A stretch of 64,000 bases of DNA from Thermoplasmatota archaeon (GCA_016927555.1 JAFGML010000021.1:9508-73507), one strand, 5' to 3'; positions 15,810 through 61,459 are shown, counted from the first letter of the stretch. Notes: generated by a model not told the origin, from the sequence alone. A program made the numbers and translations.

Positions 15810-16157
15810 ATGAACACTAAAAAAATCTTAGCTATCTTTATGTGCATGCTGGTATTGACGCTAATCCCAGTTGCAGCAGGAGCCGCAGTCGAAGAAAAAG
15901 AACCAGAAACAACCGACATTGGTGTAACCTATATACGAGGAATAATCACTAAACCGCAGCTTGTAAACGGTGGCCATGATATTACATTCCGATGTATTTG
16001 GGTTCACTACAATACACGTGGTATCGGTGAGAAACAGTCAGGATTTTTACATCTCTTCCAGAAACTAACCTTAAAGAACGACTTCATTGGGGTTGTTGGA
16101 CTCGGGCCCATGAAACATTTTATCTTCGCTCGATTCCCTGGTCAGCTTGAATTATAA
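15810..16157 (+). CDS. Small secreted protein of unknown function (paralog of 61121-61459)
   Basis: Signal peptide (ILAIFMCMLVLTLIPVAAGAA). Aligns along its whole length with the 112-aa protein at 61121. Confidence 0.6.
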   Translation: MNTKKILAIFMCMLVLTLIPVAAGAAVEEKEPETTDIGVTYIRGIITKPQLVNGGHDITFRCIWVHYNTRGIGEKQSGFLHLFQKLTLKNDFIGVVGLGPMKHFIFARFPGQLEL

Positions 16158-37812: not shown

Positions 37813-37859
37813 TCTATAGGACTCTATATAGCCCATATGAATATATATACCTCTATAGA
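37813..37859. promoter_or_regulatory. Three TCTATA(G/T)A motif copies in the divergent phoU-abrB / pstS intergenic region
   Basis: TCTATAG at 37813, TCTATATA at 37823, TCTATAGA at 37852. Read directly. Confidence 0.5.
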
Positions 37860-42903: not shown

Positions 42904-42969
42904 TCTATATAGAAAATGGAGTTTATATTGATAATTTATTTATGTATAGAGAAAATAAAGATGTATAGA
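42904..42969. promoter_or_regulatory. TCTATATAGA palindrome plus two TATAGA half-sites upstream of AbrB-PhoU copy 2
   Basis: 10-bp perfect palindrome at 42904-42913. TATAGA at 42955-42960 and 42964-42969. Confidence 0.5.
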
Positions 42970-43096
42970 CGAACTAGTCCTAACTCAAGGAACTGGAGCG
43001 AGTACCTGTGGGGGACGTGGTCTCTCCAGCAAAAGACTTGACTGAGAGAAGCAGAGAATAGGCATGCGCAACTGCATGCGATTAGGGGAACTACAT

Positions 43097-45845: not shown

Positions 45846-46037
45846 CCCTCAATGTTCCCATCTACATATCCTATATAGTGATATTGTTTCTATAGTTTTC
45901 TATATATGGTGAAGAGAAGAGTGTTCTACTGGTTTTTTCCTCGCTCTCCACGACGCATGTCACTACTTAGCATTCATTGTATTTAAATGCAGCGAGGAAA
46001 AGTAGCATGATGAAAAAAAATTTGATGAGTGATTTAT

Positions 46038-46244
46038 TTAATCGAAAGAGAGGACCGGAAGGGTAGTAACGATGGCAACATCTGCATATCGACGCACTTG
46101 TTCAATACCTTCGAGACAGTCGTCTTCAGTGGCATACCCTGCGCTTTGGACGATGATGCCATTTGCAGGGGCTTTGAGGTGGAAGTACCACTGTTCGTCC
46201 TCTTCTGATTGCCAGTATTCATAGCGTGCTAACATACGGTTCAT
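46038..46244 (-). CDS. DUF1508 (YegP-like) small protein
   Basis: YEYWQSEEDEQWYFHLKAPANGIIVQSAGYATEDDCLEGIEQVRRYA fits the YegP repeat pattern. The start among 46265, 46244 and 46235 is uncertain. Confidence 0.6.
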   Translation of the reverse strand: MNRMLARYEYWQSEEDEQWYFHLKAPANGIIVQSAGYATEDDCLEGIEQVRRYADVAIVTTLPVLSFD

Positions 46245-46349
46245 GTGTCCTGTTTTGTTGTACAACAGTCAAAAGAAGTCAAACATGATAAAGTCTTTCC
46301 ACATACAATATGAAGGCTCTATGAGTCTATAGTGTTCTATTGTTTTTCT

Positions 46350-49300
46350 TTAGTGTTTCATCATGCGGGAGGCACGATAGCTTACTAATCGCGCAATAGC
46401 ATTCAGAGCAAGTATCATGATAATTAGGATAAAAGCCACAGCATATATTTTTTCGTATAATGTAGGCCATTGAGCACTAACACTATAAAAAAGATAAATC
46501 ATGTTTGACATTGATGCTGTGGGCTGGAAAATCGATGTTGCGACATGTGCAGAATATCCTGCGGTGAACATGACTGCAGCTGTTTCCCCAATTGCTCGTC
46601 CCATCGAAATGATCGCACCACTTGTAATTCCTGGAGCCGCTGGAGGAAGAATAACTGTTCGAATCGTTTGCCATTTTGTTGCACCAAGAGCAAGTGCTCC
46701 TTCTTGAAATTCCCGAGGGATTGATTTAATTGATTCTATAGAACTTCGAAGCAGAAGAGGTATTACCATTATCCCAAGGGTGAGTCCTCCAGCAATCATT
46801 GATATCTTAAACTCAAGGAAAATCACAAAGAACATAAAACCAAATGCACCAAAGACAATGGATGGTGTACTTGCTAAAGTGTCTGAGGCAAAGAGAATGA
46901 TTTTCGTGATGATATTGTCTTTCTTGATATATTCTTGAATGTAAATCGCGGCACCAATGGACAGTGGAGCAGCAAATGCAAGGGCTATAGCAACAAGTTG
47001 GAGGGAACCTGTGATTGCATTAGCAAAACCTCCCCCTAAACCGCCCATTTCTTCTTTTTGAAAGAGATACTCGGGTTTTAATGCTAATCCACCCTTGACA
47101 ATAATATCCTGGATTATCGCAACAAGAAATAAAGTGACAGTTATTGCACAAAGAAAAAGAATGATTTTTATGATTTTTTCTGATTGAAGCGCTTTTTTTG
47201 TTGAAAATGTACGAATGAGATCTTTAAATTGACTTCTAGATGACTCATATGTAGCGTCTTCAGAGGTTTTTTTATGGGTAGAATCAATGATTACGAAATT
47301 TTTTGAAATTTTATCAGACACTATCTTAAATTTTTTTGCTGATGAAAGAGCTTGGATATTTTGTGTGTTTTTCATGAGTTTGTTTGATTTTTCTTTTTTT
47401 CGTTGCTTGAGTTTTTCTTTAAGGAATAAAAAAATACGATGACTATAGTTATGCTTGTTTTTTCTATGAATAGATAAGATGAGAACATTAAGTATGAAGA
47501 TAAGGAAAAAGAGGACAATTCCTATCGCAAAGAGAGCATGCCGTATTTGGTCGTATGAGTACCCCCAACCAAGTGTTGCCGCGATAACGGAAGTCATCGT
47601 GCCACCTGAATCAAATAGAGAACTTGGTATTTGATAAAAAGCACCCATAATCATGAGAACCGCCATGGTTTCTCCAATCGCTCTGCCAGTTGCAAGAATA
47701 ATCGACGTGATGATGCCGGATTTTGCCTCAGGTAATATGATATGTTTTACGGTCTGCCAGCGTGTCGTGCCTAAAGCAAGTGATCCTTCTTTGAGGTCTT
47801 TTCTGACAACATGAATAGCGTCTTCGGAGAGTGTAATAATAATCGGAAGTATCATGATACCAAGAACGATTGAGGCGGTTAGAACATCATTTCCTATGCG
47901 TGTTGTTGTTTTAAAAAACCAGATGTATTCACCTAGTGTGCTGGTTATGAGCGGATAAAGAGAGTGTGCAAGAAACGGTCCGAAGGTAAAAAAACCCCAA
48001 AGACCAAAAATAACTGAGGGGATTCCTGCAAGAAGCTCGTAGAGAGGCTTTAAAATCATTCTTATTTTTCTTGGGCAGAACTCAGATAGAAAGATAGCGC
48101 ATCCTAAGCCAAGAGGAGCAGCAATAAAGATTGCAATAGTTGTGGTAAGCAATGTTCCTACGATGAATGGTAATATTCCAAATGTTGGTTGTGTTTTTTC
48201 AAGTTCGATGAGTAACTCGGTTTCAAGTGTCTCATCTTGAGTTGATTCTGGGGATTCGACGATAAACGTGAGGTGTAGGGTATCGGTTGATTGATTACCA
48301 ATGTTTATTGTTCCATCACCGATTAGTAACATTGTTCCGTTTTGAAGAAGAGTTGTTTTCCAGGTATCTCTACTGCTGGTTACGGTGAATGTCGCAAATC
48401 GTTGCACCTCATTGAGCGTTATTGTGTAGTTAACTGATGAACCAGCGATGATGTTTAATCTGTCCGTATCTACTTTGATTAAATTTTGGTTTTTGAAATG
48501 AAATAGTATGTGTGATGTGTCTGTTACTTGAGGATGGTTTGTCGAATTTATCGTTACTAGTATGTCATAGACTCCATCTTGAAAACTGACGAGTCGCGGG
48601 TTGACTGTCAGATTGAGTGATGCACCTGCTTCAAGAGTAATTTGTGCTGATGATGAGTTGTAATTCCAGTTCTCAGTGAGTTCTGCTATAGATGGACGGA
48701 AATAGTCCGGAGCATGAAGGGTGATGGTGTAGGTGTCTGAATACTCTCCAGTATTTTTCAGCTGCAGGAATGCTAGTTGAAATCCTAGTTCGTCTCCTGT
48801 GGCGACGAGGCTGATTTGACTTGGAGAGAGATCAACTCGATACTCAGAGGCGGTGATTTGTAACGGGATAATTTTATTATAAGATGAGGATTGTGAGGTT
48901 ACTGTTATTGATCCTTGATAAATATTCTCACCAGCGGGTATGAAGACACTAAGGTTCATTACCACGGTGTCATTGGGTATAAGAGCAATTGGTGAGTGCG
49001 GCGCAAGAGAATAGCTTAGGTTTTGTTCAAATTGTATATCTATGGCTATGTCATCAGTGGTTCCTCCTCGATTACTGATTGTAAATGGGATGGTCACCCA
49101 AGCATCAGGGGCAGCGAAAAGGGAGGTATCCTCTAGGTGTATGTGAAGGTCGTAGGCAACAATATGGGTGATCAGTGTTGTTGATTCTGTTTTTCCTAGG
49201 CTATATGATGGTTGCCATTGTGTCCCGGTGATAAATTCAGCGGGCCCGGTTGTATCGTAGAAAGCAGGCATGCCTTCGCGTACAATAAAAAGAACGATTA

Positions 49301-49718
49301 AAAAAACTGCTAAGGTTGTTGAAAGTGAAAGCAGGAAAAGTAATTTTTTTATGATGCGTTCTTGAAAGATCAGATAGCAAAGGATGAGCGCCTCGATGCT
49401 GATGAAAGTAACAATCAACGTGCCTAAAGCTATTGGAGAGGGGGTATAGCCTTGGAATAGGTTTTGTGGATGAAAAAGTATTTGTTCAAGAACGAAAAGA
49501 AAAATTTGGAATTGGAAAAGCAAAAAGAATAGCTTTATTTTTTTTTTGTAAAAAAACATGATAATTAATCCGATTTCTGTGAGCATGATAAGTAGGATGA
49601 ACATGGGATTCATGACAAATATGTTTGGCAAAAATATTATTATTAAAAAAAGAATATTTATGATAAACAGTATCCATTTTGATTGTAGTATCTCTGTAAA
49701 ACCCATTGCATCTGTCAA
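46350..49718 (-). CDS. Giant fused PstC-PstA phosphate permease (set 2) with an extra N-terminal TM bundle and a ~340-aa insertion in the first extracytoplasmic loop
   Basis: 1122 aa. The PstC landmark FITGTQWQP is separated from QPTFGILPFIVGTLL by residues ~171-509 (nt 48192-49208), versus only a few residues in set 1. EAA loops KEGSLALGTTRWQT and QEGALALGATKWQT. A Lys-rich linker joins the halves. Confidence 0.8.
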   Translation of the reverse strand: MTDAMGFTEILQSKWILFIINILFLIIIFLPNIFVMNPMFILLIMLTEIGLIIMFFYKKKIKLFFLLFQFQIFLFVLEQILFHPQNLFQGYTPSPIALGTLIVTFISIEALILCYLIFQERIIKKLLFLLSLSTTLAVFLIVLFIVREGMPAFYDTTGPAEFITGTQWQPSYSLGKTESTTLITHIVAYDLHIHLEDTSLFAAPDAWVTIPFTISNRGGTTDDIAIDIQFEQNLSYSLAPHSPIALIPNDTVVMNLSVFIPAGENIYQGSITVTSQSSSYNKIIPLQITASEYRVDLSPSQISLVATGDELGFQLAFLQLKNTGEYSDTYTITLHAPDYFRPSIAELTENWNYNSSSAQITLEAGASLNLTVNPRLVSFQDGVYDILVTINSTNHPQVTDTSHILFHFKNQNLIKVDTDRLNIIAGSSVNYTITLNEVQRFATFTVTSSRDTWKTTLLQNGTMLLIGDGTINIGNQSTDTLHLTFIVESPESTQDETLETELLIELEKTQPTFGILPFIVGTLLTTTIAIFIAAPLGLGCAIFLSEFCPRKIRMILKPLYELLAGIPSVIFGLWGFFTFGPFLAHSLYPLITSTLGEYIWFFKTTTRIGNDVLTASIVLGIMILPIIITLSEDAIHVVRKDLKEGSLALGTTRWQTVKHIILPEAKSGIITSIILATGRAIGETMAVLMIMGAFYQIPSSLFDSGGTMTSVIAATLGWGYSYDQIRHALFAIGIVLFFLIFILNVLILSIHRKNKHNYSHRIFLFLKEKLKQRKKEKSNKLMKNTQNIQALSSAKKFKIVSDKISKNFVIIDSTHKKTSEDATYESSRSQFKDLIRTFSTKKALQSEKIIKIILFLCAITVTLFLVAIIQDIIVKGGLALKPEYLFQKEEMGGLGGGFANAITGSLQLVAIALAFAAPLSIGAAIYIQEYIKKDNIITKIILFASDTLASTPSIVFGAFGFMFFVIFLEFKISMIAGGLTLGIMVIPLLLRSSIESIKSIPREFQEGALALGATKWQTIRTVILPPAAPGITSGAIISMGRAIGETAAVMFTAGYSAHVATSIFQPTASMSNMIYLFYSVSAQWPTLYEKIYAVAFILIIMILALNAIARLVSYRASRMMKH

Positions 49719-49841
49719 GTATCAGGTTTATATAATAGTCTTGTGTATAGATTATATACTGCTCTATAGAGATATATAAAAAAAAAATGAGGAATGATGA
49801 TTTGTTATTATTGTGAGAAGAGTGAATTTTTAATGTTTTTG

Positions 49842-49883
49842 AAAAAAAAAGAAAAAGATGTGAGGAGAGGTATGTATCTCCTC
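49842..49883 (-). terminator. Hairpin plus T-run downstream of pstS2 (possible attenuating terminator before pstCA2)
   Basis: On the minus strand, GAGGAGA-tacatacc-TCTCCTC (plus strand 49862-49883) is followed by a CTTTTTCTTTTTTTTT run (plus strand A-run 49842-49856). Confidence 0.5.
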
Positions 49884-49896
49884 GTTGGTGTCCTCT

Positions 49897-51039
49897 TTAG
49901 TAGAGGCTAATGTATCCGCTTTGTTCGCAGATTTTTTTGTTCATCTCTGGGCCAAGGACAAAGTCGATGTAGACTTTTGCGTCGCCTTTTGGTTTTCCAA
50001 CGGTGACATACAAGAGTTCTCGGGCACCATCATAGAAGGTTGTTACACCAGAGCGAATGTTTTTTGCAAAATTAGTGTCGTTTGGGTCTATTAGGGTTTT
50101 AACTGTTCGTCCAGCATAGGGTATCATCGTCACAAGGCCAGTTGAGGTGGCAACAGCACCATACGAGATGAAACCAAGAGCATCTGCATCCTTTGATATC
50201 GCCTGTATAAGCTCAGCGTTACCAGTTGCATGGATGGCAGCGATGCCTCGTGATTCAAGATCGACTTTTCCTTCGTTGATCATAGAACAGAAGGTTTCCT
50301 CTGTACCTGAGACTTCAGATCGGTCATAAATCTTTACTTCTTCACTACCTGTGCAGTTATCAAACATATCGGTACGTATATTTTTTGTTGGAACTTCATC
50401 CCATGAAATATACCCATTTGCGTCGCGATCTCTAACACCATCGGTCTGATTACTCTTCCAATTTGTTGATAATTGGTCCCATGTTGCAGTTCCTTCTCTC
50501 CCGTTATATGCATAGACATCTCGAACAGTCATAGCATGGATGCTTGTTAACCCGTGAGTATTTGCATATGGGACAGCAATAACTACTGCATCATATGCAA
50601 TCAGTGTGGTAAAAAGATCGATACCAATATCTTTCTTGCCATCGCGATTCAAATCAGGTAACGAAGTCATTTTTGCTTCTACATCTGACCTGGATGATGC
50701 ACTACCAATATCAATGGTTCCATATCCAACTGCAGTGACTCCTGCACCGGTTCCACCCTGTTGGAAAGAAATCTTATAGTTTGGGTTCTGTGCTTCGAAA
50801 AACTGTGCAGCAACAGCTGTGAACGGATATACAGTTGTACTTCCACCAATAGTCATTGCTGCTTGTAACTCACCAGCACCACCGGTTTTTGTTTGAACGT
50901 CACTCTGCCAGCCGCTCTGCCAGACATAGAACGCCCCAGCTGATCCAACAGCAACGAGGACCAACATAAGGGTGGCTATGATTGGTGAGACCGCCTGGGC
51001 GTTCTTCACTAGCCTTTTTCCTATTGTTTTTGTGTTCAT
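49897..51039 (-). CDS. pstS: PstS-family phosphate-binding protein (set 2) with a class III (type IV pilin-like) signal peptide
   Basis: ATG 51039 lies 6 nt after TGGAGGCA. N-terminus MNTKTIGKRLVKNAQAVSPIIATLMLVLVAVGSAGAF. PstS blocks GGSTTVYPF and GGTGAGV...TIDIGSASS. EF-hand-like loops DLNRDGKKD and DRDANGYISWDE. Confidence 0.8.
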   Translation of the reverse strand: MNTKTIGKRLVKNAQAVSPIIATLMLVLVAVGSAGAFYVWQSGWQSDVQTKTGGAGELQAAMTIGGSTTVYPFTAVAAQFFEAQNPNYKISFQQGGTGAGVTAVGYGTIDIGSASSRSDVEAKMTSLPDLNRDGKKDIGIDLFTTLIAYDAVVIAVPYANTHGLTSIHAMTVRDVYAYNGREGTATWDQLSTNWKSNQTDGVRDRDANGYISWDEVPTKNIRTDMFDNCTGSEEVKIYDRSEVSGTEETFCSMINEGKVDLESRGIAAIHATGNAELIQAISKDADALGFISYGAVATSTGLVTMIPYAGRTVKTLIDPNDTNFAKNIRSGVTTFYDGARELLYVTVGKPKGDAKVYIDFVLGPEMNKKICEQSGYISLY

Positions 51040-51294
51040 TTTTTTTGCCTCCAAATATTTTTCTACTTTGGATTGCATCCCCCAACACCGTCAGGTTCAC
51101 GAAATCCAAACCACATGCAGTATTTTTCTGCACTTACTTTGCGCCAACGAACCGGTTTTTTAATAAGCTTATTCAAATAAAAAAAATAGAATGAGTAGAT
51201 GACACGACTACCACTCACGGCTACATACAAAAACTGGAACTATATAGGGTATAGTGTCTCTATACAACATCTTTTTAACACACAGTTTTCATAG

Positions 51295-53091
51295 ATGGTT
51301 CCAGAGCAACAAAAGGAGGCATTCTGTATTCCACGCTTTGAACATCTCAGCAATCTCTTCAAGAAAAAAGACGACTCTGAGCAACAAATCACCCGACTGC
51401 TTGATACCAAATACCGAGATCTTCTGAAAAAGAAAGCTGAGTCACTCGAACAACACTTCCTCCCAAAAGAAGAAATCTCAGAAAAAATCATTCAACAAGA
51501 AGAAATCAGCTTCATGAGAAGAGAATTCGAACGAAACAAAAGCACCGTCAACATCACGTATCCTGTCAACCCACCCTTCGCTTTTGTGAACATCCTCTTC
51601 AACGAACAAGCTGGGGAATTCCACTACCTGCTCAAAGAACCAAAACTCAAAGAAGCTGAGGTACACCACCTTGACCTCATCAAACAAAAAATAGAGGCAA
51701 CCATGGATGAAGAAGACCTTCCCATCGACGAGGAAGGAACCTTCACTGTCTCAAAGGAACTCAAAGCATACCTACAGAAACGATTCCTCGATGTCATCGA
51801 CTTGTACGACATTGCTGTTGATGAGAAACGACGACCCATTCTCTTGTATTACCTACAGAAAGACCTCCTTGGACTTGGTAGAAGCGACGCAGTCATCAAA
51901 GACCTGTTCGTCGAAGACATCGGCTGCAATGGGCCAAAAACACCCCTCTACCTGTACCATCGTGTGTTTGGCTCCATGAAGACCAACATCACCTACCCTA
52001 GTGAACTTGAACTGAACAAGTTCATCCTGAAGCTGGCGCAAACCTCTGGCAAACACATCAGCGTCTATCAACCAATCCTAGATGCAGTCCTTGCTGACGG
52101 CAGTAGAATCAACCTCACCTTAGGTTCTGAGGTCACAAGGAAAGGCTCGACGTTCACGATACGGAAATTCAGCTATGACCCGATCTCACCGATTGACTTG
52201 CTCAGGTTCGGCTCAATCTCCACCCTGCAGCTGGCGTACTTCTGGCAGCTCATCGAACATAAGAAATCCATTCTGATGAGTGGGGGAACCGCTTCAGGGA
52301 AAACCACGCTGCTCAACGCCCTGTGCATGTTCATCAGACCAGAGGATAAAATCGTCTCCATAGAAGACACCCCAGAGATCCACATCGACCATCAGAACTG
52401 GATCCAATCAGTGGCACGAAAAGGATATGGGAAAATGATGGGGGTGTCTGGCATCTCAGGGATATCAGGAATCTCAGGAATCTCCTCCTCAAGCGGCGGG
52501 CCTGGGTCTATTGATATGTTTGATTTACTTGTCGCTGCCCTGCGTCAACGACCAGAGTACATCATCGTTGGGGAAATACGAGGCAGAGAAGCCTTCACCC
52601 TCTTCCAAGCCATCGCCGTTGGCCACTCCTCAATGAGCACGGTGCATGCTGGGTCTATCGAAGAACTCCTCCACCGGGTGGAAAACGAACCGATGAACAT
52701 CCCCCGTGTTTTGTTCCAAAGCATTGACGCGGTCGCCTTCCAAGGACAAGTCATCGCCAACGGCAAACGCGTCAGACGAGTCAAAAACATAGTGGAAGTC
52801 CTTGAAATCGACCCTGATACCAACAACCTGCTCACGAACACCGCGTTCCACTGGAACCCCAAGGGTGACTTCTTCCACTACAACGGCAGAAGCTTCATTG
52901 TGGAAAAAATCGCTCGAGACACAGGGAAAGACTCCGATAAAATCATGGAGGAGCTCACCAGAAAAGAACACTACCTGCAACTCATGAACAAGAAAAACCT
53001 GACGTACTACAAAGACGTCAGCAAAGCCATCAACATGTACTATGTCGACCCACTGAAAGCAACCATGGACCTTGAAGCAACCCTGAGGTAA
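51295..53091 (+). CDS. FlaI/ArlI-PilB-type secretion ATPase (type IV filament assembly)
   Basis: Walker A SGGTASGKTTLLNAL, Asp box IVSIEDTPEI, Walker B/His box RQRPEYIIVGEIRGREA...GHSSMSTVHA. Unusual GVS(GIS)4SSSGGPGS insert. Confidence 0.85.
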   Translation: MVPEQQKEAFCIPRFEHLSNLFKKKDDSEQQITRLLDTKYRDLLKKKAESLEQHFLPKEEISEKIIQQEEISFMRREFERNKSTVNITYPVNPPFAFVNILFNEQAGEFHYLLKEPKLKEAEVHHLDLIKQKIEATMDEEDLPIDEEGTFTVSKELKAYLQKRFLDVIDLYDIAVDEKRRPILLYYLQKDLLGLGRSDAVIKDLFVEDIGCNGPKTPLYLYHRVFGSMKTNITYPSELELNKFILKLAQTSGKHISVYQPILDAVLADGSRINLTLGSEVTRKGSTFTIRKFSYDPISPIDLLRFGSISTLQLAYFWQLIEHKKSILMSGGTASGKTTLLNALCMFIRPEDKIVSIEDTPEIHIDHQNWIQSVARKGYGKMMGVSGISGISGISGISSSSGGPGSIDMFDLLVAALRQRPEYIIVGEIRGREAFTLFQAIAVGHSSMSTVHAGSIEELLHRVENEPMNIPRVLFQSIDAVAFQGQVIANGKRVRRVKNIVEVLEIDPDTNNLLTNTAFHWNPKGDFFHYNGRSFIVEKIARDTGKDSDKIMEELTRKEHYLQLMNKKNLTYYKDVSKAINMYYVDPLKATMDLEATLR

Positions 53092-53097
53092 CCACTG

Positions 53098-54027
53098 ATG
53101 AAACAACGCCGTACGAAGAAAGAGCCTTCTTTGAAAAAACCAGTCAGTGCACTCCTCGTGGAACGCTACAAAGCGTTCAGCTACCGTCTCTTCGGCAAAC
53201 ACGTGTTCACTACAGAGAAGACTGGGGCATTGTCTGAAAAACTCAAAATGGCAAACATGCGTTACACACCATCGGTATTCTACTCAACACTGCTGACCAC
53301 AGGCATACTCATCACAGTTCTTTCACTCATCGTCTTCAGCTTCCTGTTTCATTTTCTCCTAACGATAGACATGTGGCTTTTGTACTCCCTTGCGCTAACC
53401 GCGGTGACTACGACAGTAACCCTTGGGATGTTCTTCTTCGTCATGAACTCGAAAATCTCCTCACGGAAATCGCAAATCGACCACGAACTGCCCTTCGTCC
53501 TCAGCGAGCTGTCCATTCTCGCAAGCACGGGGCTGACCCCCATTAAAATCATGCGGCACATGGCACAGCGTCACGGTAACCCAGCGATGACCTCAGAATT
53601 CAGAAAAATCATATCAAAAATCGACGTGGAAGGAAAAGACATCATCACCGCGATGAGTGAAACCGCAAAGGAAACACCCTCGCCACTGTTCCGGGAGACA
53701 CTCTGGGACCTCTGCAACATGATTCACCAGGGAGGAGACCTGGATGCATACCTACGTTCAAAGGCAGACATCACCCTGCAGCTGAAGCGAGATATCCAAA
53801 AAGAATTCATAGAGAAACTGGCGACCTACTCCGAGATGTACTCAAGCTTGGTCCTCATCGGCGTACTGTTTCTTGGGATTGCAGCATTCTTGCTTGATGC
53901 GATGCAATCCACAATAGGACCACTCACCGCTGACTCCTTACTGCTCATGCTCTCATACTTAATCATACCTGCGGTCATCATTGGTGTGAATGCTATCGTC
54001 TCTCTGGCGTATGCGAAGAGCGGGTGA
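53098..54027 (+). CDS. Type IV filament platform protein, half-size (single T2SSF domain; FlaJ/TadB-like)
   Basis: One T2SSF-type cytoplasmic domain (ELPFVLSELSILASTGLTPIKIM...GGDLDAYL) flanked by TM segments. Confidence 0.7.
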   Translation: MKQRRTKKEPSLKKPVSALLVERYKAFSYRLFGKHVFTTEKTGALSEKLKMANMRYTPSVFYSTLLTTGILITVLSLIVFSFLFHFLLTIDMWLLYSLALTAVTTTVTLGMFFFVMNSKISSRKSQIDHELPFVLSELSILASTGLTPIKIMRHMAQRHGNPAMTSEFRKIISKIDVEGKDIITAMSETAKETPSPLFRETLWDLCNMIHQGGDLDAYLRSKADITLQLKRDIQKEFIEKLATYSEMYSSLVLIGVLFLGIAAFLLDAMQSTIGPLTADSLLLMLSYLIIPAVIIGVNAIVSLAYAKSG

Positions 54028-54034
54028 GTAAACG

Positions 54035-55432
54035 TTGCGCTTTCACACCATCTCCTTGAGTGTAGCATTCTTCCTTCTCCTCTGTCTTCCCTCCAGCATC
54101 ACCGCACAAGAAGATACCACTCCACCAGTGATTATTAGTGTTTCCCCTGCCGAGGCCACAACCATAGGTAACCAAACACCACAAATCATGGTTCAGTACG
54201 CAGATGAATCAGACATCGACCTGAGCACTGTTAGAATCATCGTCGATCAAATAGATGTCACAGAGTGGGAGGAAACCTCGATAACAGACACCTCTGTTTT
54301 GTATAAGGTTCCGCAGATCCTCAGACTCCAAGACGGTAATCATTCCGTGTTTATTGAGGTGGCAGATACACAAGGGAACCGTGCGACAAAAACCTGGGTG
54401 TTTCTCGTTGACACAACACAACCAACACTCCAAGGAGAAAGCCTGGACCTCTTCACCATCGTCACCTTTTTCATCTACGGAGCACTCATCAGCGCAGTCC
54501 TCTTCATTTTTTATATTTTATACCTGAGGAAAACACGGAGGTTCACGTTCAGAAAGTTCTTTGCACAACATCCCATACAAAAAGAAATCATCACCCTCTA
54601 CATTCCCCTCATCCTTGGTTTTTTTATCATCCTCTTTGGTCTTGCTTGGACCTCAAGAAACCTGCCTGACATCCCGTTTTCCCCGGAGTACGTCTTTTCT
54701 GCCGGAGTGCTCATTGCCCTTGGACCATTCACACTATCATCGATAGCTGAAAAACGCACTATCAATCGGTACGAGCAAGCGTTCGCACAGTTTCTCTTTG
54801 AAATGGCAGATGCTATGCGCGGGGGTCTTGACCCCACCAAAGCACTCATTGAGCTTGCAAAGGGAAATCAAGGAATCCTCAGAGACCATCTGAAGAAAGC
54901 AGCGGAGAACATCAAACTCGGTCGACCCTTTGATGAGGTGATGCAAGCCATGGTCCGTCCTATTAAAAGTGATTTGGTGAAACGGTATGCGACTTTGATT
55001 GGTGACACCTCAAAAATCGGTGGGGAAACCTCACTGGTCATTTACAGAACCGCAAAGGATATGGATGACTTTATCAAAATCAACCAGGAGCGCAGACGGC
55101 AGCTCACCGCTCAGGTCACCACGATTTACATCGCCTTTGCCGTCTTACTTGTCATCCTGTATCAGTTGATCACGATGTTTCCTTCAATGGGGTCATTGAA
55201 CCTCTCTTTGCTTGGTGCCACTGATTTGGATTCCACAGAGACAAGCTCATCGATCATCCGCATGAGTAGTGAAACCATGAAACGCAGGTTCCTTCATCTC
55301 ATGATGATTAACTCCCTGGGCACAGGGACGCTCATGGGGATGCTTGTTGATGGAAAAATCAAATACGGGCTTATTCATTCACTCGTCCTGATTAGTATAT
55401 CAGTGGTGTTCTTCGCACTTCTCATCCTTTAA
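54035..55432 (+). CDS. Type IV filament platform protein, half-size (T2SSF domain) with a Sec-type signal and an N-terminal Ig-like ectodomain
   Basis: TTG start 7 nt after GGGTGA. Signal LSVAFFLLLCLPSSITAQ. A ~110-aa beta-rich domain (PPVIISVSP...TWVFLVDTTQPT), TM segments, then a T2SSF block (FEMADAMRGGLDPTKALIELA...GRPFDEVM). Confidence 0.7.
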   Translation: MRFHTISLSVAFFLLLCLPSSITAQEDTTPPVIISVSPAEATTIGNQTPQIMVQYADESDIDLSTVRIIVDQIDVTEWEETSITDTSVLYKVPQILRLQDGNHSVFIEVADTQGNRATKTWVFLVDTTQPTLQGESLDLFTIVTFFIYGALISAVLFIFYILYLRKTRRFTFRKFFAQHPIQKEIITLYIPLILGFFIILFGLAWTSRNLPDIPFSPEYVFSAGVLIALGPFTLSSIAEKRTINRYEQAFAQFLFEMADAMRGGLDPTKALIELAKGNQGILRDHLKKAAENIKLGRPFDEVMQAMVRPIKSDLVKRYATLIGDTSKIGGETSLVIYRTAKDMDDFIKINQERRRQLTAQVTTIYIAFAVLLVILYQLITMFPSMGSLNLSLLGATDLDSTETSSSIIRMSSETMKRRFLHLMMINSLGTGTLMGMLVDGKIKYGLIHSLVLISISVVFFALLIL

Positions 55433-55476
55433 AAAAAAGTAAAAATGTACACAGAATTTTTTTTAAACCCAGGGTG

Positions 55477-56736
55477 TTACTCAGTGATTGCTCCTAGGAA
55501 ATCACAATAGGGGCAGCGAAGTATTCCCTCTGTATCATTGAGTGTTGTGGTAAAAGTCTTCTGACACATAGGGCAGGAGACTTCAACAGCAGGAGAGGGT
55601 AGCCGAATAGAGGTTACCTGTGCGTCCTTTGTATTTCTCACAGCTGAGGATTTTCTTGGTGAGGCCCGAGGTGCCTTGGTCTTTTGTGATGAAGTTTTTT
55701 TATGAGACATAGTAGTTTTTTGTGTATTTGAGGATGGTTCAGACGATGCTGTTGTCGTTATTTTCTGTATGGGTACACACACCAACTCAGGAGCCACAGC
55801 ATCCTCCGGAATAGTGATTTTCTGTTCTTTTACCATGGAGAGGACTTCACCAACGACGACTTCATCAATCATGATGGAACGCTTCTTTGCAGCGTAATCA
55901 ATGACAACATCAGCAAGCTTGAGGAGATGACGAGGGTTGCCAGCCACATCTAAATTGAGAAAAGCGACGCCCTCGGGGGTGAACGGGTACAAAGGGTCCA
56001 CATCATCAACGAGTCGTTTCTCTAAGAGTCTTTTGGCAATCATCAACTGTGCTTCTTCATCGCTGAGCGGTGGGATTTGGATTTTTCGGTTTATCCGTTC
56101 ATGCAGGGATTTGTGCTGCTCCATGAGTGATTCGAAATACTGCTGATCACTGCTGATCATAATCATCACGCCTTGGTCAATGTGGTCAATCATGACGTGC
56201 AGTGTGTGTAAGAACCGCTCAGCATCCTCCACCCGTGCAAGGTGATGAAAATCATTTATTAACAGAAACGAAGGGGCATTATTGTTTAAAGCATCAGCGA
56301 TGATTCTACCGGCTTTATCAGGATCGTACTGCTTCTCTGCTTTCTTAAGTTTCTTTTTAACCGACTTGTACCACTTCGGAGCAGAGAACAGACGAGTGAA
56401 GAAACCAAGGTGGCTTTGAAGAAGGAGTAGATGCAGGATGCCTTCGACGACCCAGCGGGTCTCAAAAGTCATGTTCTGAAACACATAGAACGCGTTGTTG
56501 CGTTTTGCTTCATTTGCCACCAGCAGCAGTCGCTCGGTTTTCCCAGCACCAAGCCCACCAAGCACTGCAACAACCGCTTTGTTTTCCTTGTAGAATACTT
56601 CCTCGCGCATTCGAGCTAAATCTTCATCAACCCGCTGAACGACATGGAAGATGTCAACGTTCTCCAAACTCTCACTGGAGAGATCTCGGAACGGATTGCT
56701 ACTTAACCCATAGCGTTCATATCCTGTTTTCTGCAT
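55477..56736 (-). CDS. ExeA/AAA_22-like P-loop ATPase with a disordered Ser/Thr/Lys-rich linker and a C-terminal zinc ribbon
   Basis: YGLSSNPF N-terminus, Walker A GGLGAGKTERL, Walker B-like LLINDFHH, C-terminal CPMCQ...CPYCD. Confidence 0.6.
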   Translation of the reverse strand: MQKTGYERYGLSSNPFRDLSSESLENVDIFHVVQRVDEDLARMREEVFYKENKAVVAVLGGLGAGKTERLLLVANEAKRNNAFYVFQNMTFETRWVVEGILHLLLLQSHLGFFTRLFSAPKWYKSVKKKLKKAEKQYDPDKAGRIIADALNNNAPSFLLINDFHHLARVEDAERFLHTLHVMIDHIDQGVMIMISSDQQYFESLMEQHKSLHERINRKIQIPPLSDEEAQLMIAKRLLEKRLVDDVDPLYPFTPEGVAFLNLDVAGNPRHLLKLADVVIDYAAKKRSIMIDEVVVGEVLSMVKEQKITIPEDAVAPELVCVPIQKITTTASSEPSSNTQKTTMSHKKTSSQKTKAPRASPRKSSAVRNTKDAQVTSIRLPSPAVEVSCPMCQKTFTTTLNDTEGILRCPYCDFLGAITE

Positions 56737-56752
56737 AGTGCTTGTTCACTTC

Positions 56753-57367
56753 CTACGTGACCCGTGCGCGAAGATCGATGCTGATCTTTTTGCCATCAAA
56801 GGTGTAGTAAATATTATCATTGAAGGAATCACGGTTCATCCATTTGGAAATCCGAATATACCGTGCGATTCCCTTTGTCGTCTCTTTGGATAAAAAATGA
56901 ATAATACCATCAGCAAGGTGACCTATGGTGATCTGGACTTTCTCATCAAGCATCCCGTACTCCAGTGAGAGCAGGAGAATGGTGTTGTGTTGTTTGCACA
57001 GACTATCCAGCTCCTCAACAATGGTTCGGACTTCTGATAAGGTCTTGTCAAGAACCAAATAGGAAAACGAGTCGATGATAAGCACCGCATCTCTCCTGAT
57101 GAAATCCTTCCAGTGGCGATGGGAACGCTCTTCAACAATTTGACACTTGGTTGAATCGGTGTACTGCGACAGTTCAGCGACAACCTCTTCTTTTGCCCGC
57201 GAGGCGATGTACACAACCTCTTTTTTGTGTTTCACGGCAAGCCCTGCTACAGTTTGAATAAAGATCGTCTTAATGGGGTCAATCGTGCCTTGGACGACAA
57301 CAATGTTCCCATTTGGGATTTCTTGTATGAATTCGTTTAATCCAGCTATGTGAATAGGAATCCCCAT
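56753..57367 (-). CDS. KaiC/RecA-superfamily FlaH(ArlH)-like protein with a degenerate Walker A
   Basis: GLNEFIQEIPNGNIVVVQGTIDPIKTIF (GxxGxGKT degraded to GTIDPIKT) and a VLIIDSFS Walker B-like strand. ATG 57367 preferred over the longer track ORF. Confidence 0.55.
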   Translation of the reverse strand: MGIPIHIAGLNEFIQEIPNGNIVVVQGTIDPIKTIFIQTVAGLAVKHKKEVVYIASRAKEEVVAELSQYTDSTKCQIVEERSHRHWKDFIRRDAVLIIDSFSYLVLDKTLSEVRTIVEELDSLCKQHNTILLLSLEYGMLDEKVQITIGHLADGIIHFLSKETTKGIARYIRISKWMNRDSFNDNIYYTFDGKKISIDLRARVT

Positions 57368-57452
57368 AGGAGCCAATATCCTCTTTTTTATTATCGCTAA
57401 GAATACTATATTTCTTAAAGATATTGAACATAATCTATGGACCGCCTTAGTT

Positions 57453-57462
57453 TCTATATAGA
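57453..57462. promoter_or_regulatory. TCTATATAGA palindrome in the divergent flaH-like / pilin-like intergenic region
   Basis: The same perfect 10-bp palindrome as at 42904. A further TATAGA at 57483-57488. Confidence 0.5.
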
Positions 57463-57529
57463 CATACATACCATGCATACATTATAGACATCATTTTTAA
57501 GATACGGAAAAAAGTACGTAAATCTACCT

Positions 57530-58423
57530 ATGAGAAAGTGTACTTACGAGGAGCAAGCAGTCTCTATTATCATTGGAGCGTTAATGCTTACCGTCATTGT
57601 CGTGTCAGCAGCAACAGCGTTTGCAGTGTTCACCAGTCAAAAACAAAAGGAGCTGCAGGAAGCACAGTACGCCTCCTTACAACGAGATCTCGAACAGCTA
57701 GCCATTACAAGGATCTCCACCATCCACTACAACAGCTCAAATCATTTAGAAAACATTAGTTGTAGCATCGTCAGTCTCCACGCAGATGACTCACGCATTA
57801 TTTCAATGAGTCTGAACGGCAATTACCTCAGGTATTTTCACCTCACCAGGCAAGACTACACACTAGAAGAGTGGAAAATCAATTCAACAACAGGTGAATA
57901 TGTCTTACAGAGTGTAACAGACAGTCAGGGTGCCGTGATCTATAATGGAAGCACAAGTTTTAACACATCGAATGAAAAATATTCATACTACCCCTTGACA
58001 GTGTTATCTCGAGAACGAGTGCTTCTTACTATAGACAATGCATCGAGCACAAGTGTATTCCTTATTCGGCATATTCTTAGCAATGATGCAATTACTTTGT
58101 CGGTGTACACAAGTTTAACCAATGAGTTTTCAAAGACGTTCTATCCACCGACAGCAATCATCCGTCTCATTACTGAGTCACAGTGGAATAGCACAAGTAA
58201 TGACTATGAATCAGTCATCATCTTGGATGGCTCCCTCTCAGATCATCCTTCACTAGATGCCTACATTGTATCATGGATATGGACAGTCGATGGAAATCCA
58301 CTGAGCACATCGGGAAGAAAAATCCGTGCACCAGATAGCCTTCTCATAGGGAACCATAACATCACCTTGAGTGTCACTGATAATTTTGGCATGAACAGCA
58401 CCAGCACAATCACATACCCCTAG
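57530..58423 (+). CDS. Type IV pilin-like protein (class III signal peptide) with a C-terminal PKD-like domain
   Basis: N-terminus [34 protein letters not shown] (archaeal pilin N-domain type). Many N-x-S/T sequons. C-terminus [10 protein letters not shown]...[12 protein letters not shown] (PKD-like). Confidence 0.7.
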
Positions 58424-58439
58424 CGAGGAGGATTTTTTT

Positions 58440-59207
58440 ATGGCACTGAAGAAAAAACCTAAAATCACCATCAACAATCTGAATCTGTGGTATGGCGACA
58501 AACAAGCACTCATCAATGTTTCGATACAGATACCGGAACATAAAATAACCGCACTCATCGGCCCCTCCGGATGCGGAAAATCCACACTCATCCGCTGCTT
58601 AAACCGTATGAATGACACCATCGATACCTGTAAGACAAGAGGTGAAGTACATCTTGATGGACACAATATCTACGCTGATGATGCAAACGTCGTGGCAATA
58701 CGTAGAAAAATCGGCATGGTGTTCCAGAAACCAAACCCCTTCCCAAAAAGTGTGTACGACAACATCGCATATGGACCGAAAATGCAAGGAATTAAAGACA
58801 AAAAAATTCTTGACCCGCTGGTCGAACAAACCCTGAGGAAAGCAGCGCTTTGGCAGGAAGTTGTTGATCGATTACATGAATCAGCTATGGGATTGTCGGG
58901 AGGTCAACAGCAGCGACTCTGCATCGCACGTGCCTTAGCTATTGAACCGGAGGTCATCCTCATGGATGAGCCCTGCTCCGCCCTTGACCCCATAGCGACT
59001 GCAAAAATAGAGGACCTCATGGTAGAGCTAAAAAAAGATTACACGGTCGTCATCGTCACTCATAACATGCAGCAGGCAGCACGCATTAGCGATTACGCTG
59101 CGTACATGTACCTCGGCAAGATGATCGAATTTTCATCAACAAAACAACTCTTTGAAAACCCTAAAGAAGAACTCACCCAGAACTATATCACCGGGAGATT
59201 TGGATAA
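58440..59207 (+). CDS. pstB: Phosphate ABC transporter ATP-binding protein PstB (set 2)
   Basis: Walker [10 protein letters not shown], signature [15 protein letters not shown]-terminus YITGRFG. Very similar at protein level to PstB at 40845, but with many synonymous differences. Confidence 0.9.
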
Positions 59208-59211
59208 CACG

Positions 59212-59928
59212 ATGCAGAATTCTGCTTCTCCCCAGTACTTCACTCTCTCTGAGAAAGGGACAAAACGTTCGAGGAATGAGGATTGCTTTCTTGTGGAAAC
59301 CCACCAAAATCACTACTTGTGTGCAGTCGCTGACGGCGTTGGTGGTCTGCAGAATGGTCATGTTGCAAGCAGTCATGCAATCTCAGAACTACGACAATTG
59401 TTTAGAGGACGACAGATGGGTCTGAAGGACTGTTTTCACCTCATCAACACATCGTTAGTACGAGAGAACCAGAAGCATTCACAGACCAGCGCAACCACAC
59501 TAACCTCGGTACTCATCAACGTAGAAACCATGGAAGCAATGATAGCCCACGTCGGAGATAGCAGAGCGTACGTCATCACTGAAACACTATGGAGAACACA
59601 CGACCATAGCTTGGTTGAGCAGCTCGTTGATCTCGGTGTGATTACTGAGGAGGCAGCATTTACTCATCCCGAAAAGCATAGGATTACACAAGCACTAGGA
59701 ATCAATACAAGTATTGGTGTTGAGGTGAATTACCAAGGACTCAAGAACGCGATCTTGTTACTCTGTTCAGATGGGCTACATAATTTTGTTCGTGACAGAG
59801 ACATTGCTACCATCGCTCGAGAGCATGACCCACAAACAGCCTGTATACGATTAATGGAAATTGCGCGAACACAGGGGAGTAATGATGACATCACAATCAT
59901 ATTTTTCAAGATAGGAGATGAAAGGTAA
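59212..59928 (+). CDS. PP2C-family Ser/Thr protein phosphatase
   Basis: RSRNEDCF, AVADGVGG, LLLCSDGL and GSNDDITII motifs. ATG 59212 lies 5 nt after the pstB2 stop. Confidence 0.8.
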   Translation: MQNSASPQYFTLSEKGTKRSRNEDCFLVETHQNHYLCAVADGVGGLQNGHVASSHAISELRQLFRGRQMGLKDCFHLINTSLVRENQKHSQTSATTLTSVLINVETMEAMIAHVGDSRAYVITETLWRTHDHSLVEQLVDLGVITEEAAFTHPEKHRITQALGINTSIGVEVNYQGLKNAILLLCSDGLHNFVRDRDIATIAREHDPQTACIRLMEIARTQGSNDDITIIFFKIGDER

Positions 59929-60130: not shown

Positions 60131-60904
60131 TTATACTTTGTTTTTTTCAGGTTCGTAGTACCGATTCTGACAGCATCCATCAGTGAGAGAAAACTCCACC
60201 ATGGTCTTCATCTCCCCGGTTCGCACATTCATCACTTGTACTTTAATCTGGTGGTCGTCGATGTCAATGACATTAAACGTGTTGCCGAAATGCGCCCGGG
60301 TGCGGTTACAGGAAAACGTGCCTGCGTTGACCAAGAGTGTCTTATGGATTTTCACGGCCCAGGGGACATGACGATGACCCATCAACACGAGTGGGACTTC
60401 TTTGCGTAGAATCAAATCCAGGGTTTCCCCAGCATCCTCAATAATGTTGGTTTCTCGCCCTGAGCCAGGTACCGGAACCAGATGATGATGGAACCCCACT
60501 ATCGTAAGTTTCCCTGCAGTAACACATTCTTCGATCTTTCGATACCGCCCTCGTCCTAGACGCCCGTCGTCCTTGTCAGGCTCGCTGGATGCTAGACCAA
60601 TCAATGTCACCTGTGGTAATGTATGAACAAAATCAGTTTCACCGAAAAACTCAGGAAACAACTTGAACCCCAGGTTCCGCTCATCATGGTTCCCCGGCAC
60701 CACAAATAACCGACTTGTGATTTCCTGGGTTTTCTTGGCTGCTAGCTCGTATTCGGACAACAGTCCATCCGTGGTGAGATCACCAGAGACAAACACAAAA
60801 TCACAGTGAAGGCCGTTAAGCATCCCAACTGCCTTGTCAAAAATCTTTGGGTTGAAATCCGTCCCTTGCGTAGAATGAATATCAGAGATATGACCAATTC
60901 TCAT
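60131..60904 (-). CDS. Calcineurin-like metallophosphoesterase
   Basis: MRIGHISDIHS, SGDLT, GNHD, GFHHH and GHRH motifs. Confidence 0.8.
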   Translation of the reverse strand: MRIGHISDIHSTQGTDFNPKIFDKAVGMLNGLHCDFVFVSGDLTTDGLLSEYELAAKKTQEITSRLFVVPGNHDERNLGFKLFPEFFGETDFVHTLPQVTLIGLASSEPDKDDGRLGRGRYRKIEECVTAGKLTIVGFHHHLVPVPGSGRETNIIEDAGETLDLILRKEVPLVLMGHRHVPWAVKIHKTLLVNAGTFSCNRTRAHFGNTFNVIDIDDHQIKVQVMNVRTGEMKTMVEFSLTDGCCQNRYYEPEKNKV

Positions 60905-61120: not shown

Positions 61121-61459
61121 ATGAAGACAGTAAAATATTTAGGTATCATAGGTATATTAGCTCTCCTTCTGATTCCCACCAGTTTAGCAGTGGCACTACC
61201 ACAAGAACAAGAGGAACAACCAACAGACCTTGGCTGGACGTTTCTTCGAGGATTTATCACAAAACCGAGTCTGACCAACGCTGGTCAAGATGTTCAGTTC
61301 CGAGCCATCCTTGTCCACTACCGCACCCATATCTTCGGTGTCAGCCAACGAGGAGTTCTCCGAGGATTTCAAAAAATCGTCCTCCCAAATGATTACACGG
61401 GCATCTTAGGCAACCACTACGTGTTTGCGCGATTTGACGGACGAATGACGTTTCTGTAA
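61121..61459 (+). CDS. Small secreted protein of unknown function (paralog of 15810-16157)
   Basis: Signal peptide. Shared blocks with 15810: TD(I/L)G.T(Y/F)(I/L)RG.ITKP.L.N.G.D..FR...VHY.T...G....G.L..FQK..L.ND..G..G......FARF.G. Confidence 0.6.
   Translation: MKTVKYLGIIGILALLLIPTSLAVALPQEQEEQPTDLGWTFLRGFITKPSLTNAGQDVQFRAILVHYRTHIFGVSQRGVLRGFQKIVLPNDYTGILGNHYVFARFDGRMTFL

Follow-up and report, generated by a model that had tools for sequence, protein, structure and literature searches.

Why should the genes of a second phosphate (Pst) transporter be interleaved with those of a type IV filament machine? The question arises at positions 46350-59928 of a stretch of 64,000 nucleotides (GCA_016927555.1, JAFGML010000021.1:9508-73507; hereafter the window) from a Thermoplasmatota metagenome-assembled genome, whose best protein match is to Candidatus Thermoplasmatota. 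A sequence-only reading had suggested that this locus assembles a phosphate-binding protein, PstS2, into or onto a pilus-like surface structure, comparable with the sugar bindosome of Sulfolobus, that feeds a dedicated Pst permease. At the sequence level our analysis supports this suggestion on three counts: the N-terminus of PstS2 is homologous to mature archaeal pilus subunits, with the A↓VS site of Haloferax PilA (the arrow marks cleavage) and no lipobox; the pst and pilus genes are found together in relatives; and the pilus genes are distinct from those of the canonical archaellum. We conclude that the region probably encodes a dedicated, phosphate-regulated, bindosome-like type IV filament system, with PstS2 as its client or as one of its subunits.

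All ten genes named in the sequence-only reading were recovered, at coordinates that were exact or a few bases off, and were identified by searches with Pfam and NCBIfam models, in which PstC, PstA, PstB, PF12849, PF00437 and PF00482 were matched. They are listed here together with the large insert of the permease (lengths in amino acids, aa).

46350-49718, minus strand: pstCA2, a fused PstC-PstA permease of 1122 aa (TIGR02138, 447.6 bits, cutoff 196.45; TIGR00974, 381 bits, cutoff 193.45).
48195-49199, minus strand: insert in the first extracellular loop of PstC (residues 174-508), probably Ig/CARDB-like, between the motifs TGxxWxP and FGxLP.
49897-51039, minus strand: pstS2, a phosphate-binding protein of 380 aa with a predicted class III N-terminus (PF12849, 64.3 bits, cutoff 27).
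51295-53091, plus strand: PilB-like T2SSE ATPase (PF00437, 113.9 bits, cutoff 24.9).
53098-54027, plus strand: platform half 1, 309 aa with one T2SSF domain (PF00482, 51.2 bits), conserved in 52 related loci.
54035-55432, plus strand: platform half 2, 465 aa with one T2SSF domain (PF00482, 46.9 bits), conserved in 51 related loci.
55477-56736, minus strand: AAA_22-like P-loop protein with a C-terminal zinc ribbon (weak AAA_22 and nSTAND matches).
56753-57367, minus strand: KaiC/FlaH-like protein (PF06745, 37.7 bits).
57530-58423, plus strand: type IV pilin-like protein of 297 aa (Pilin_N, PF07790, 22.7 bits against a cutoff of 25.2; E 1.9e-4).
58440-59207, plus strand: pstB2 (TIGR00972, 415.2 bits, cutoff 343.2).
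59152-59928, plus strand: PP2C-type Ser/Thr phosphatase, a variable accessory gene (PF00481, 48 bits; Stp1-type model, 189 bits, cutoff 230).

Judged by its sequence and predicted structure, PstS2 is a phosphate-binding fold with an intact ligand pocket, placed behind a pilin N-terminus of the PilA/Iho670 type. Whereas PstS1, the canonical phosphate-binding protein of the same genome, has the lipobox LLAGC, PstS2 has no lipobox and begins KNAQAVSPIIATLMLVLVAV, for which the predicted cleavage is KNAQA↓VSPII, between A16 and V17. This site is predicted because a PstS2 family profile of 43 members aligns to the first residues of mature pilus subunits: residues 17-50 matched mature Iho670 (5kyh and 3j1r, E ~2e-7), and also 8fk7 and 8rey, with V17 falling on residue 1 of Iho670, and the single PstS2 sequence aligned with Iho670 in the same register (E 2.6e-4). 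Designed 'Pizza' repeat proteins, which a single-sequence search returned as Protein Data Bank (PDB) matches to the N-terminus, were dismissed, as no individual stretch was above threshold. The Haloferax PilA pilins, which are processed by PibD, carry the same A↓VS site, and the core is shared with the pilin of the cluster, VSPII in PstS2 corresponding to VSIII at the predicted sites. What the sequence-only reading had said of the lipobox and of the common core is thus borne out. A search of 5.8 billion proteins returned 245 homologues of PstS2, including those of Methanomassiliicoccus luminyensis, Methanolobus and Methanohalophilus, and every full-length member among the best 120 of the 245 has the pattern x[AG]VSP[VI][IV]AT followed by a hydrophobic stretch. 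PstS2 and the 297-aa pilin were the only proteins with class III-like N-terminal signals in a six-frame scan of the window.

The same profile matched solved PstS structures over residues 58-348 (1twy, E 1.7e-36). The AlphaFold2 model of PstS2 (predicted local distance difference test, pLDDT, 85.5) shows a helix of 34 residues (19-52) joined by a short linker to a binding-protein fold, and the top 41 matches in a Foldseek search of the PDB with this model were all phosphate-binding proteins. Within the family, the columns S67/T68/T69, S/T97, D110, R240 and S244-G245-T246 are invariant or nearly so; we take them to be the equivalents of E. coli PstS T10, S38, D56, R135 and S139-G140-T141. Although PstS2 did not reach the cutoff of NCBIfam TIGR02136 (106.8 bits, cutoff 206.6), this cutoff appears to be strict for the lineage, because the canonical PstS1 also misses it (186.5 bits).

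The other protein with such a signal, the 297-aa pilin, has a predicted cleavage site at EEQA↓VSIII and a predicted fold that is that of an archaeal filament subunit. In its AlphaFold2 model (pLDDT 88.8) a helix (residues 3-54) is followed by a beta-sandwich and a C-terminal PKD-like domain. Foldseek matched the model, with good target coverage, to the archaellins 9eq7, 5o4u and 7ofq and to the type IV pilus of P. calidifontis (Pyrobaculum; 8fk7), and the C-terminal tail to the PKD domain of ColG. The protein contains nine N-glycosylation sequons. Members of its family, encoded in 38 related loci, have the N-terminal pattern [RDE]G↓VSxI(I/V)G(A/T)LML, and several of the homologues carry a precomputed match to PF07790, for which the window pilin itself lies just under the cutoff.

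The assembly genes belong to the euryarchaeal PilB/PilC type. With the BasE model NF053672 the ATPase scored 184.1 bits (cutoff 1000), and with the BasF model NF053673 the platform, which is split into two genes, scored 34.7 bits (cutoff 1300); scores so far under the cutoffs rule out orthology with the Bas system, so that the bindosome-like idea of the sequence-only reading stands while its likening of the machinery to Bas does not extend to orthology. The best PDB match of the ATPase is A. fulgidus GspE (2oap, 383 bits) and not Sulfolobus FlaI, and the score with the PilB3-type C-terminal domain PF23989 was 23.3 bits against a cutoff of 27, with precomputed matches in many close homologues. 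The ATPase core contains an inserted Gly/Ser-rich loop, GVSGISGISGISGISSSSGG (residues 379-405, nucleotides 52429-52509). Most PstS-linked ATPases have a loop of this kind, a few have a shortened one or none, and ArlI and the crenarchaeal ATPases lack it; the loop could mark the PstS-linked clade. Platform half 2 has an N-terminal secreted or external Ig-like domain (Big_13, E 5.7e-4, residues 46-127). The protein previously labelled 'ExeA-like' does have an intact P-loop, GGLGAGKT, but the name comes solely from a sub-threshold AAA_22 match (E 0.004). It carries a disordered S/T/K-rich tail as well as its zinc ribbon, gave no NCBIfam match and no PDB match, and is encoded in 11 loci, those of Thermoplasmatota and L074 (labelled Hydrothermarchaeota). 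The PP2C gene was found also in L004 and L006. In the KaiC-like protein the Walker A motif is degenerate (QGTIDPIKT, window 57266-57301, residues 23-34), as it is in 47 of the 47 loci carrying the gene (family pattern [GE]-x4-[IV]-K-[ST]), which suggests a non-catalytic or unusual nucleotide-binding partner.

Might these genes instead be the motor of a canonical archaellum that serves the two archaellin genes of the window? FlaI-, FlaJ- and FlaH-like proteins do occur together here, the best NCBIfam match of the ATPase is the ArlI model, and neither window archaellin has arl accessory genes nearby. However, the ATPase scored only 399.1 bits with that model (NF058587, cutoff 550), the platform halves 65 and 36 bits with the ArlJ models (cutoffs 550 and 400) and the KaiC-like protein 32.2 bits with ArlH (cutoff 215), and among the ten proteins of 46350-59928 there was no match to the ArlF or ArlG models and no ArlC/D/E. 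The archaellin genes themselves (5751-6452, and ~19150-19793 on the plus strand) are 32-45 kilobases (kb) from the motor genes. A true arl operon was found when a metagenome scan was made with a window archaellin: in L115, archaellin relatives lie beside ArlF, ArlG, ArlH, two tandem ArlI and one 595-aa ArlJ, and the two ArlI, which served as a positive control, scored 682 and 686 bits and are 31-36% identical to the window ATPase. A simple neighbour-joining distance tree with bootstraps, built from ATPase cores, placed the PstS-linked members of every lineage in one clade (198/200 bootstraps), apart from ArlI (100/100) and also from the crenarchaeal ATPases; the PstS-linked ATPases of Thermoplasmatota and those of Halobacteriota share on average 56.5% identity in the core, and 38.7% with ArlI. 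The platform is moreover split, where ArlJ is a single gene of about 550-600 aa, the Walker A motif of the KaiC-like protein is degenerate, and Methanomassiliicoccus is described as non-motile, yet M. luminyensis carries the module. Archaellum identity of the type IV genes, which the sequence-only reading had named as a possible pitfall, is contradicted by these sequence data, and we regard its probability as negligible.

Several observations concern the archaellum genes in their own right. The archaellin at ~19150-19793 carries a signal of typical form, ENQRGA↓, yet between the preceding stop codon and this signal there is no ATG, GTG or TTG, so that the gene must either start at a rare codon or be damaged. 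The first archaellin gene is directly followed by that of an 894-aa protein (6802-9486, plus strand) with weak similarity to PorU/C25-type sortase domains. Tandem ArlI genes, which are unusual to our knowledge, occur in related Thermoplasmatota, at 14445-17811 in L115 and also in L086, L109, L110, L117-L119, L122, L124 and L136.

The association of pst and pilus genes was examined in related loci. One genome per GTDB species was searched with a peptide pattern for the N-terminus of the PstS2 family, which carries no information on neighbouring genes, and tBLASTn searches with the ten proteins of the window located the partners in the 79 loci obtained. A locus was counted as informative if it carried PstC/A and extended for 8 kb or more to each side (n=27), and in 24 of these PilB/PilC lay within 10 kb. 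Linked partners were found in Thermoplasmatota, Methanolobus, Methanomethylovorans, Methanohalobium, a Methanosarcina strain, the anaerobic methanotrophic archaea (ANME) of the ANME-1 and ANME-2 groups, Methanocella and, with Methanomicrobiales among the lineages, Methanoculleus, Methanoregula and Methanolinea, as well as in L031, which is labelled Nitrososphaerales. Three gene orders were seen. In Thermoplasmatota the order is that of the window, with pstB, pilin, kaiC, AAA, pilC2, pilC1 and pilB divergent from pstS and pstCA; in Methanosarcinales, ANME and Methanocella it is pstS, pstC, pstA, pilB, pilC1, pilC2, with kaiC on the opposite strand, and the pilin; and in Methanomicrobiales pilC1, pilC2 and kaiC are upstream of pstS, pstC and pstA, with pilB downstream. 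That the linkage survives three gene orders argues for function. In a reverse test the distant pilin homologues P0176 and P0173 also proved to sit in the same cluster. The cultured M. luminyensis B10 (L083, CAJE01000003.1 64986-86053) has a complete set, with a 1071-aa PstCA, an AbrB-PhoU regulator and PstB.

These results answer the question of co-occurrence that had been posed for relatives of the locus: both gene groups are found together in several archaeal orders. The specific arrangement pstS2-pstCA2-flaI-like-pilin-pstB2 holds as a linkage, not as an order, which varies by lineage, and a dedicated pstB is often missing. An accidental adjacency of pst and pilus genes in a single genome would be expected at a few percent, because archaeal genomes hold one to seven such systems; as the two groups are linked in dozens of species-level genomes, from at least five orders and in varied gene orders, we give this explanation next to no weight. 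By these sequence comparisons, chance adjacency and the archaellum are both effectively excluded.

Some of the loci call for comment on their labels and contents. L072 is labelled Deltaproteobacteria but carries an ANME-2-like archaeal module, and its genome assignment is probably wrong; the Nitrososphaerales label of L031 needs caution before a module is claimed for Nitrososphaerota; and L025 comes from a metagenome-assembled genome whose sole label is 'uncultured Methanolobus sp.'. The Methanosarcinales version of the module also encodes a ~146-aa membrane protein with four helices, found in 31 loci (cluster 12, e.g. L026 997-1437).

The transport proteins differ in how far they have diverged from the canonical set of the same genome. 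PstS2 and PstS1 are 25% identical and the PstCA2 and PstCA1 cores 32%, against 73% for PstB2 and PstB1, and for this reason PstS2 and PstCA2 represent an old, separate lineage, whereas PstB looks interchangeable, which fits its absence from most Halobacteriota versions. A pstB gene is found at the pstB2 position in L002, L009 and L013. Beyond its core, PstCA2 has an N-terminal extension of about four membrane helices and an insert of 335 aa that separates the conserved TGxxWxP and FGxLP motifs, which directly adjoin each other in PstCA1. Of the 10 N-x-S/T sequons of PstCA2, 9 fall within the insert, which gave no match to Pfam; in Thermoplasmatota relatives it is conserved but fast-evolving (24-27% identity), and the N-terminal extension is conserved too. 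Among the loci examined the insert belongs to the Thermoplasmatota version only. The Methanosarcinales are without it and instead encode, just upstream of pstS, a C-terminally anchored CARDB-like surface protein (~680 aa), which was seen in L023 (7445-9598) and 25 other loci of the Methanosarcinales and ANME. No homology between the insert and this protein was detected (hhalign probability 0.9%, E 0.06), leaving an analogous presence only. The P2 loop of E. coli MalF, a large extracytoplasmic domain of Ig type that lies between the first and second core helices, holds MalE, and MalF also has extra N-terminal helices. The PstC insert is comparable with P2 by analogy, without sequence similarity, and is about twice as long and rich in N-glycosylation sequons. 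The G+C content of the pstCA2 region (window 46001-50000) is 0.38-0.39, against ~0.46 in the rest of the window, which could be due to membrane-protein composition or to foreign origin.

One promoter element is common to the filament genes and the pst genes, whether it acts as an operator or is a TATA box. The 8-base palindrome CTATATAG is present in five copies in the window, against 0.32 expected, and none of 100 shuffles reached five. All five are intergenic and confined to the phosphate and pilus gene cluster, at the following positions.

37824-37831: between the first regulator and pstS1.
42905-42912: upstream of the second AbrB-PhoU regulator.
45871-45878: just beyond pstCA2.
51240-51247: in the divergent promoter region of pstS2 and the pilB-like gene.
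57454-57461: in the divergent promoter region of the kaiC-like gene and the pilin gene.

Half-sites containing TATAG are often found 10-20 base pairs from CTATATAG. In the related loci, including those of other phyla, the element ranked first among 64 composition-matched palindromes, with 81 copies where the median was 21. Copies lie upstream of pstS and in the kaiC-like/pilin intergenic region of the Thermoplasmatota loci L002, L006 and L009 and of the ANME-1 locus L019. In some ANME-2 and Methanosarcinales loci CTATATAG is followed after ~14 bases by CTATAGGTA, and no general extended consensus was derived. The palindrome is a candidate phosphate operator, which the AbrB-PhoU proteins would perhaps recognise, or may be a TATA box of symmetric sequence.

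The second of these regulators adjoins the module and belongs to a wider phosphate island.

43064-44107, plus strand: AbrB-PhoU fusion regulator (PhoU domain match), with CTATATAG upstream at 42905.

Upstream of the module this island comprises PiT, a TIGR00153 PhoU-like protein, two AbrB-PhoU fusion regulators, the canonical operon pstS1, pstCA1, pstB1, phoU and a low-molecular-weight phosphatase. The AbrB-PhoU family also flanks the module in Methanolobus and relatives, L080, L082, L083 and L031. In L021, L025-L028, L032, L042 and L058 (Methanolobus, Methanomethylovorans) a PhnD-like binding protein and a HAMP/PAS histidine kinase are encoded upstream of the AbrB-PhoU regulator, a pair that may serve in phosphate or phosphonate sensing. 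On the other side, a metallophosphoesterase gene (60131-60904) adjoins the module. Two paralogous small secreted proteins in the window (15810-16157 and 61121-61459, plus strand) have the motif T-D-x-G-[VW]-T-[YF]-[IL]-R-G-[IF]-I-T-K-P in common; a Pfam scan of the one at 61121-61459 gave no match.

How does such a system compare with those already described? The bindosome of Sulfolobus and its class III sugar-binding proteins GlcS, AraS and TreS are established. As in the Bas system of Sulfolobales, the binding protein of an ATP-binding cassette (ABC) transporter has a class III signal, here a predicted one; the Bas-dependent binding proteins need a PilB-like ATPase together with a membrane protein of the PilC type for their function, and counterparts of both are encoded here; and the result proposed for both is a surface array that improves nutrient capture. 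In contrast to Bas, the substrate would be phosphate and not sugars, the platform is in two genes with a degenerate KaiC-like partner, and there is one large PKD pilin, the sole class III-like protein of the window beside PstS2, where Bas has the three small BasABC. The binding protein and permease lie inside the assembly cluster, whereas in Sulfolobus they are elsewhere in the genome, and the hosts are Thermoplasmatota and Halobacteriota, unlike the crenarchaeal hosts of Bas.

Closer relatives of the machinery are the euryarchaeal clade or system 2 pili, such as those of Haloferax (PilB3/PilC3, PilA1-6). The module resembles these in its T2SSE ATPase with a weak match to the PilB3-type C-terminal domain, in its two tadC-like platform genes, which Makarova et al. 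call common in clade 2, in pilin N-termini of the R/K-[AG]↓VSP-VIG type, which in Haloferax are PibD-processed, and in its KaiC-family partner, such partners having been noted in Methanomicrobia. The ATPase comparison covered ArlI and crenarchaeal ATPases, and the likeness to clade 2 is one of domain matches and gene content. Unlike clade 2 adhesion pili with their small pilins, the module has a 380-aa phosphate-binding protein with a pilin N-terminus and lies amid phosphate-regulon genes. With the archaellum (ArlB, C/D/E or X, F, G, H, I, J) it shares the homologous trio of ATPase, KaiC-like protein and polytopic platform, but every equivalog cutoff was failed and the module contains neither ArlF/G nor archaellins.

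Class III binding proteins of euryarchaea were predicted in silico in 2007 and were still called unconfirmed in a 2012 review. A recent preprint (Sivabalasarma and Albers, bioRxiv 2026, 10.64898/2026.04.22.720090) lists 4364 class III binding proteins across archaea, euryarchaea included, and proposes 'functionalized TFF machineries' in which binding proteins are inserted into type IV filaments for scavenging. Its binding proteins are usually encoded with ABC transporter genes and not, as here, in filament clusters, and its text has no mention of phosphate or PstS, no pstS-pstC/A-filament cluster and no ATPase clade matching ours. The 2016 census of Makarova et al. records, for Methanomicrobia, KaiC genes that are transcribed together with ATPase/TadC operons; phosphate, PstS and transporters are absent from its main text, and a listing in the supplement is possible. 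The census gives no secretion ATPase for Methanomassiliicoccus genomes, and M. luminyensis B10 nevertheless has the PstS-linked ATPase, platform and pilin; different Methanomassiliicoccus genomes were probably used. PstS of Pseudomonas aeruginosa has been reported on filamentous structures of the cell surface when phosphate is limiting (Zaborina et al. 2008, PMC2242829), a bacterial case whose abstracts mention neither a pilin-type PstS N-terminus nor a linked type IV cluster. Literature searches combining PstS with FlaI, type IV pili, bindosome, pilin or methanogens found no description of the cluster. The sequence-only reading was therefore right that no such phosphate arrangement is described in the literature searched, but the arrangement is not peculiar to this locus: it is widespread and apparently ancient.

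A working model can be drawn from these features, in which 46350-59928 would be a single module, a second high-affinity Pst importer coupled to a dedicated type IV filament assembly system. At low phosphate, the CTATATAG promoters would switch on the pst and filament genes together. PstS2 and the PKD pilin would enter the membrane by their pilin-type N-termini and be trimmed at A↓VS by a prepilin peptidase encoded elsewhere. The PilB-like ATPase, acting on the two-part PilC platform, would then lift the N-terminal helices out of the membrane and stack them into a short filament or bindosome-like array, with assembly modulated by the KaiC-like protein and, in Thermoplasmatota, also by the AAA/zinc-ribbon protein and PP2C. 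Many phosphate-binding domains would in this way be displayed in or beyond the cell envelope. Loaded PstS2 would hand phosphate to PstCA2, with the glycosylated 335-aa loop as a docking arm by analogy with MalF P2, and import would be powered by PstB2 or by a PstB encoded elsewhere. In this model we infer the cleavage of both N-termini, the co-assembly of PstS2 with the pilin and the induction at low phosphate, and likewise the docking role of the PstC insert. That the cluster further represents a distinct and ancient archaeal lineage of filament machines with PstS as its dedicated cargo, in which PstS is polymerised with a PKD pilin into a structure that harvests phosphate at the surface and feeds a Pst permease with a docking arm under a shared phosphate-responsive promoter element, is a more tentative proposal, one that we regard as possible and somewhat short of probable.

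A number of points weigh against the proposed capture system. It is founded on sequence and predicted structure, from which cleavage, assembly and phosphate regulation are predictions. At the predicted PstS2 cleavage site, position -2 is Q and not the usual K/R/D/E, and the flexible linker after the PstS2 helix would also suit a simple membrane tether. The six-frame scan for class III-like signals found no small major pilin in the cluster, and no GGGD[VIL]K signature of a prepilin peptidase was present in the window or in the five representative loci scanned. CTATATAG may be simply a symmetric TATA box and not an operator. The related loci were gathered through the N-terminal motif, so that the sample consists of PstS proteins carrying it, and three loci (L037, L038 and L061) have a pilin-type PstS and PstC/A with no PilB/PilC within 10 kb. 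Nor are the sets always complete, since pstB is absent from most Halobacteriota loci and PstC/A from L031.

Some of these points would be accommodated if the product were a phosphate-starvation pilus for attachment to surfaces or minerals, biofilm formation or the uptake of extracellular DNA for phosphorus, made of the PKD pilin and of pilins encoded elsewhere, with the PstS2 N-terminus as a mere membrane anchor independent of the machine. The PKD-tailed pilin is adhesin-like, and the linker behind the PstS2 helix, the want of a small major pilin and the adjoining metallophosphoesterase gene are all compatible with such a pilus, while shared promoter elements need mean only co-regulation. We consider this unlikely, although it has to be taken seriously, because it leaves unexplained why the PstS of the cluster has a PilA/Iho670-type N-terminus and the unlinked PstS1 a lipobox, why linkage to pstS is kept where pstC/A (L031) or pstB is missing, and why the ATPase clade tracks the pilin-type PstS across phyla. 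Alternatively, the genes might encode a general-purpose type IV pilus machine that serves many pilins elsewhere, perhaps including the archaellin-like genes of the window, and that merely neighbours pst, with PstS as one client. The single pilin gene of the cluster is in keeping with this, euryarchaeal PilB/PilC modules are known to use pilins encoded elsewhere, and in M. luminyensis, where pilus-like appendages have been seen on strain CZDD1, a 'type IV pilin or archaella' gene is highly expressed. However, Methanosarcinales generally have more type IV pilus systems than most archaea according to the Makarova census, yet the sampled pst-linked ATPases form a single clade; the linkage is kept through rearrangements; and the pilus genes themselves are flanked by phosphate regulators and by the shared promoter element. 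We judge a general-purpose machine to be quite improbable.

The phosphate-capture module, if this reading is correct, bears on more than one locus. The sugar bindosome of Sulfolobus, with its still unsettled architecture, is so far the only case in which nutrient uptake is tied to a type IV filament machine; here binding protein, permease and assembly machine lie in one cluster, which makes the pairing of client and machine explicit and defines a minimal parts list. The presence of the cluster in organisms in culture, namely Methanomassiliicoccus luminyensis, Methanolobus, Methanoculleus and a Methanosarcina strain, opens it to experiment. For annotation, CTATATAG as a candidate archaeal phosphate promoter or operator and the diagnostic ATPase clade provide leads. 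The ecological reach would be wide, as carriers of the module include methanogens, methane-oxidising ANME archaea and sediment Thermoplasmatota. If true, the system would be a new functional class of type IV filament, one for nutrient harvesting, conserved in Thermoplasmatota, methanogen and ANME lineages.

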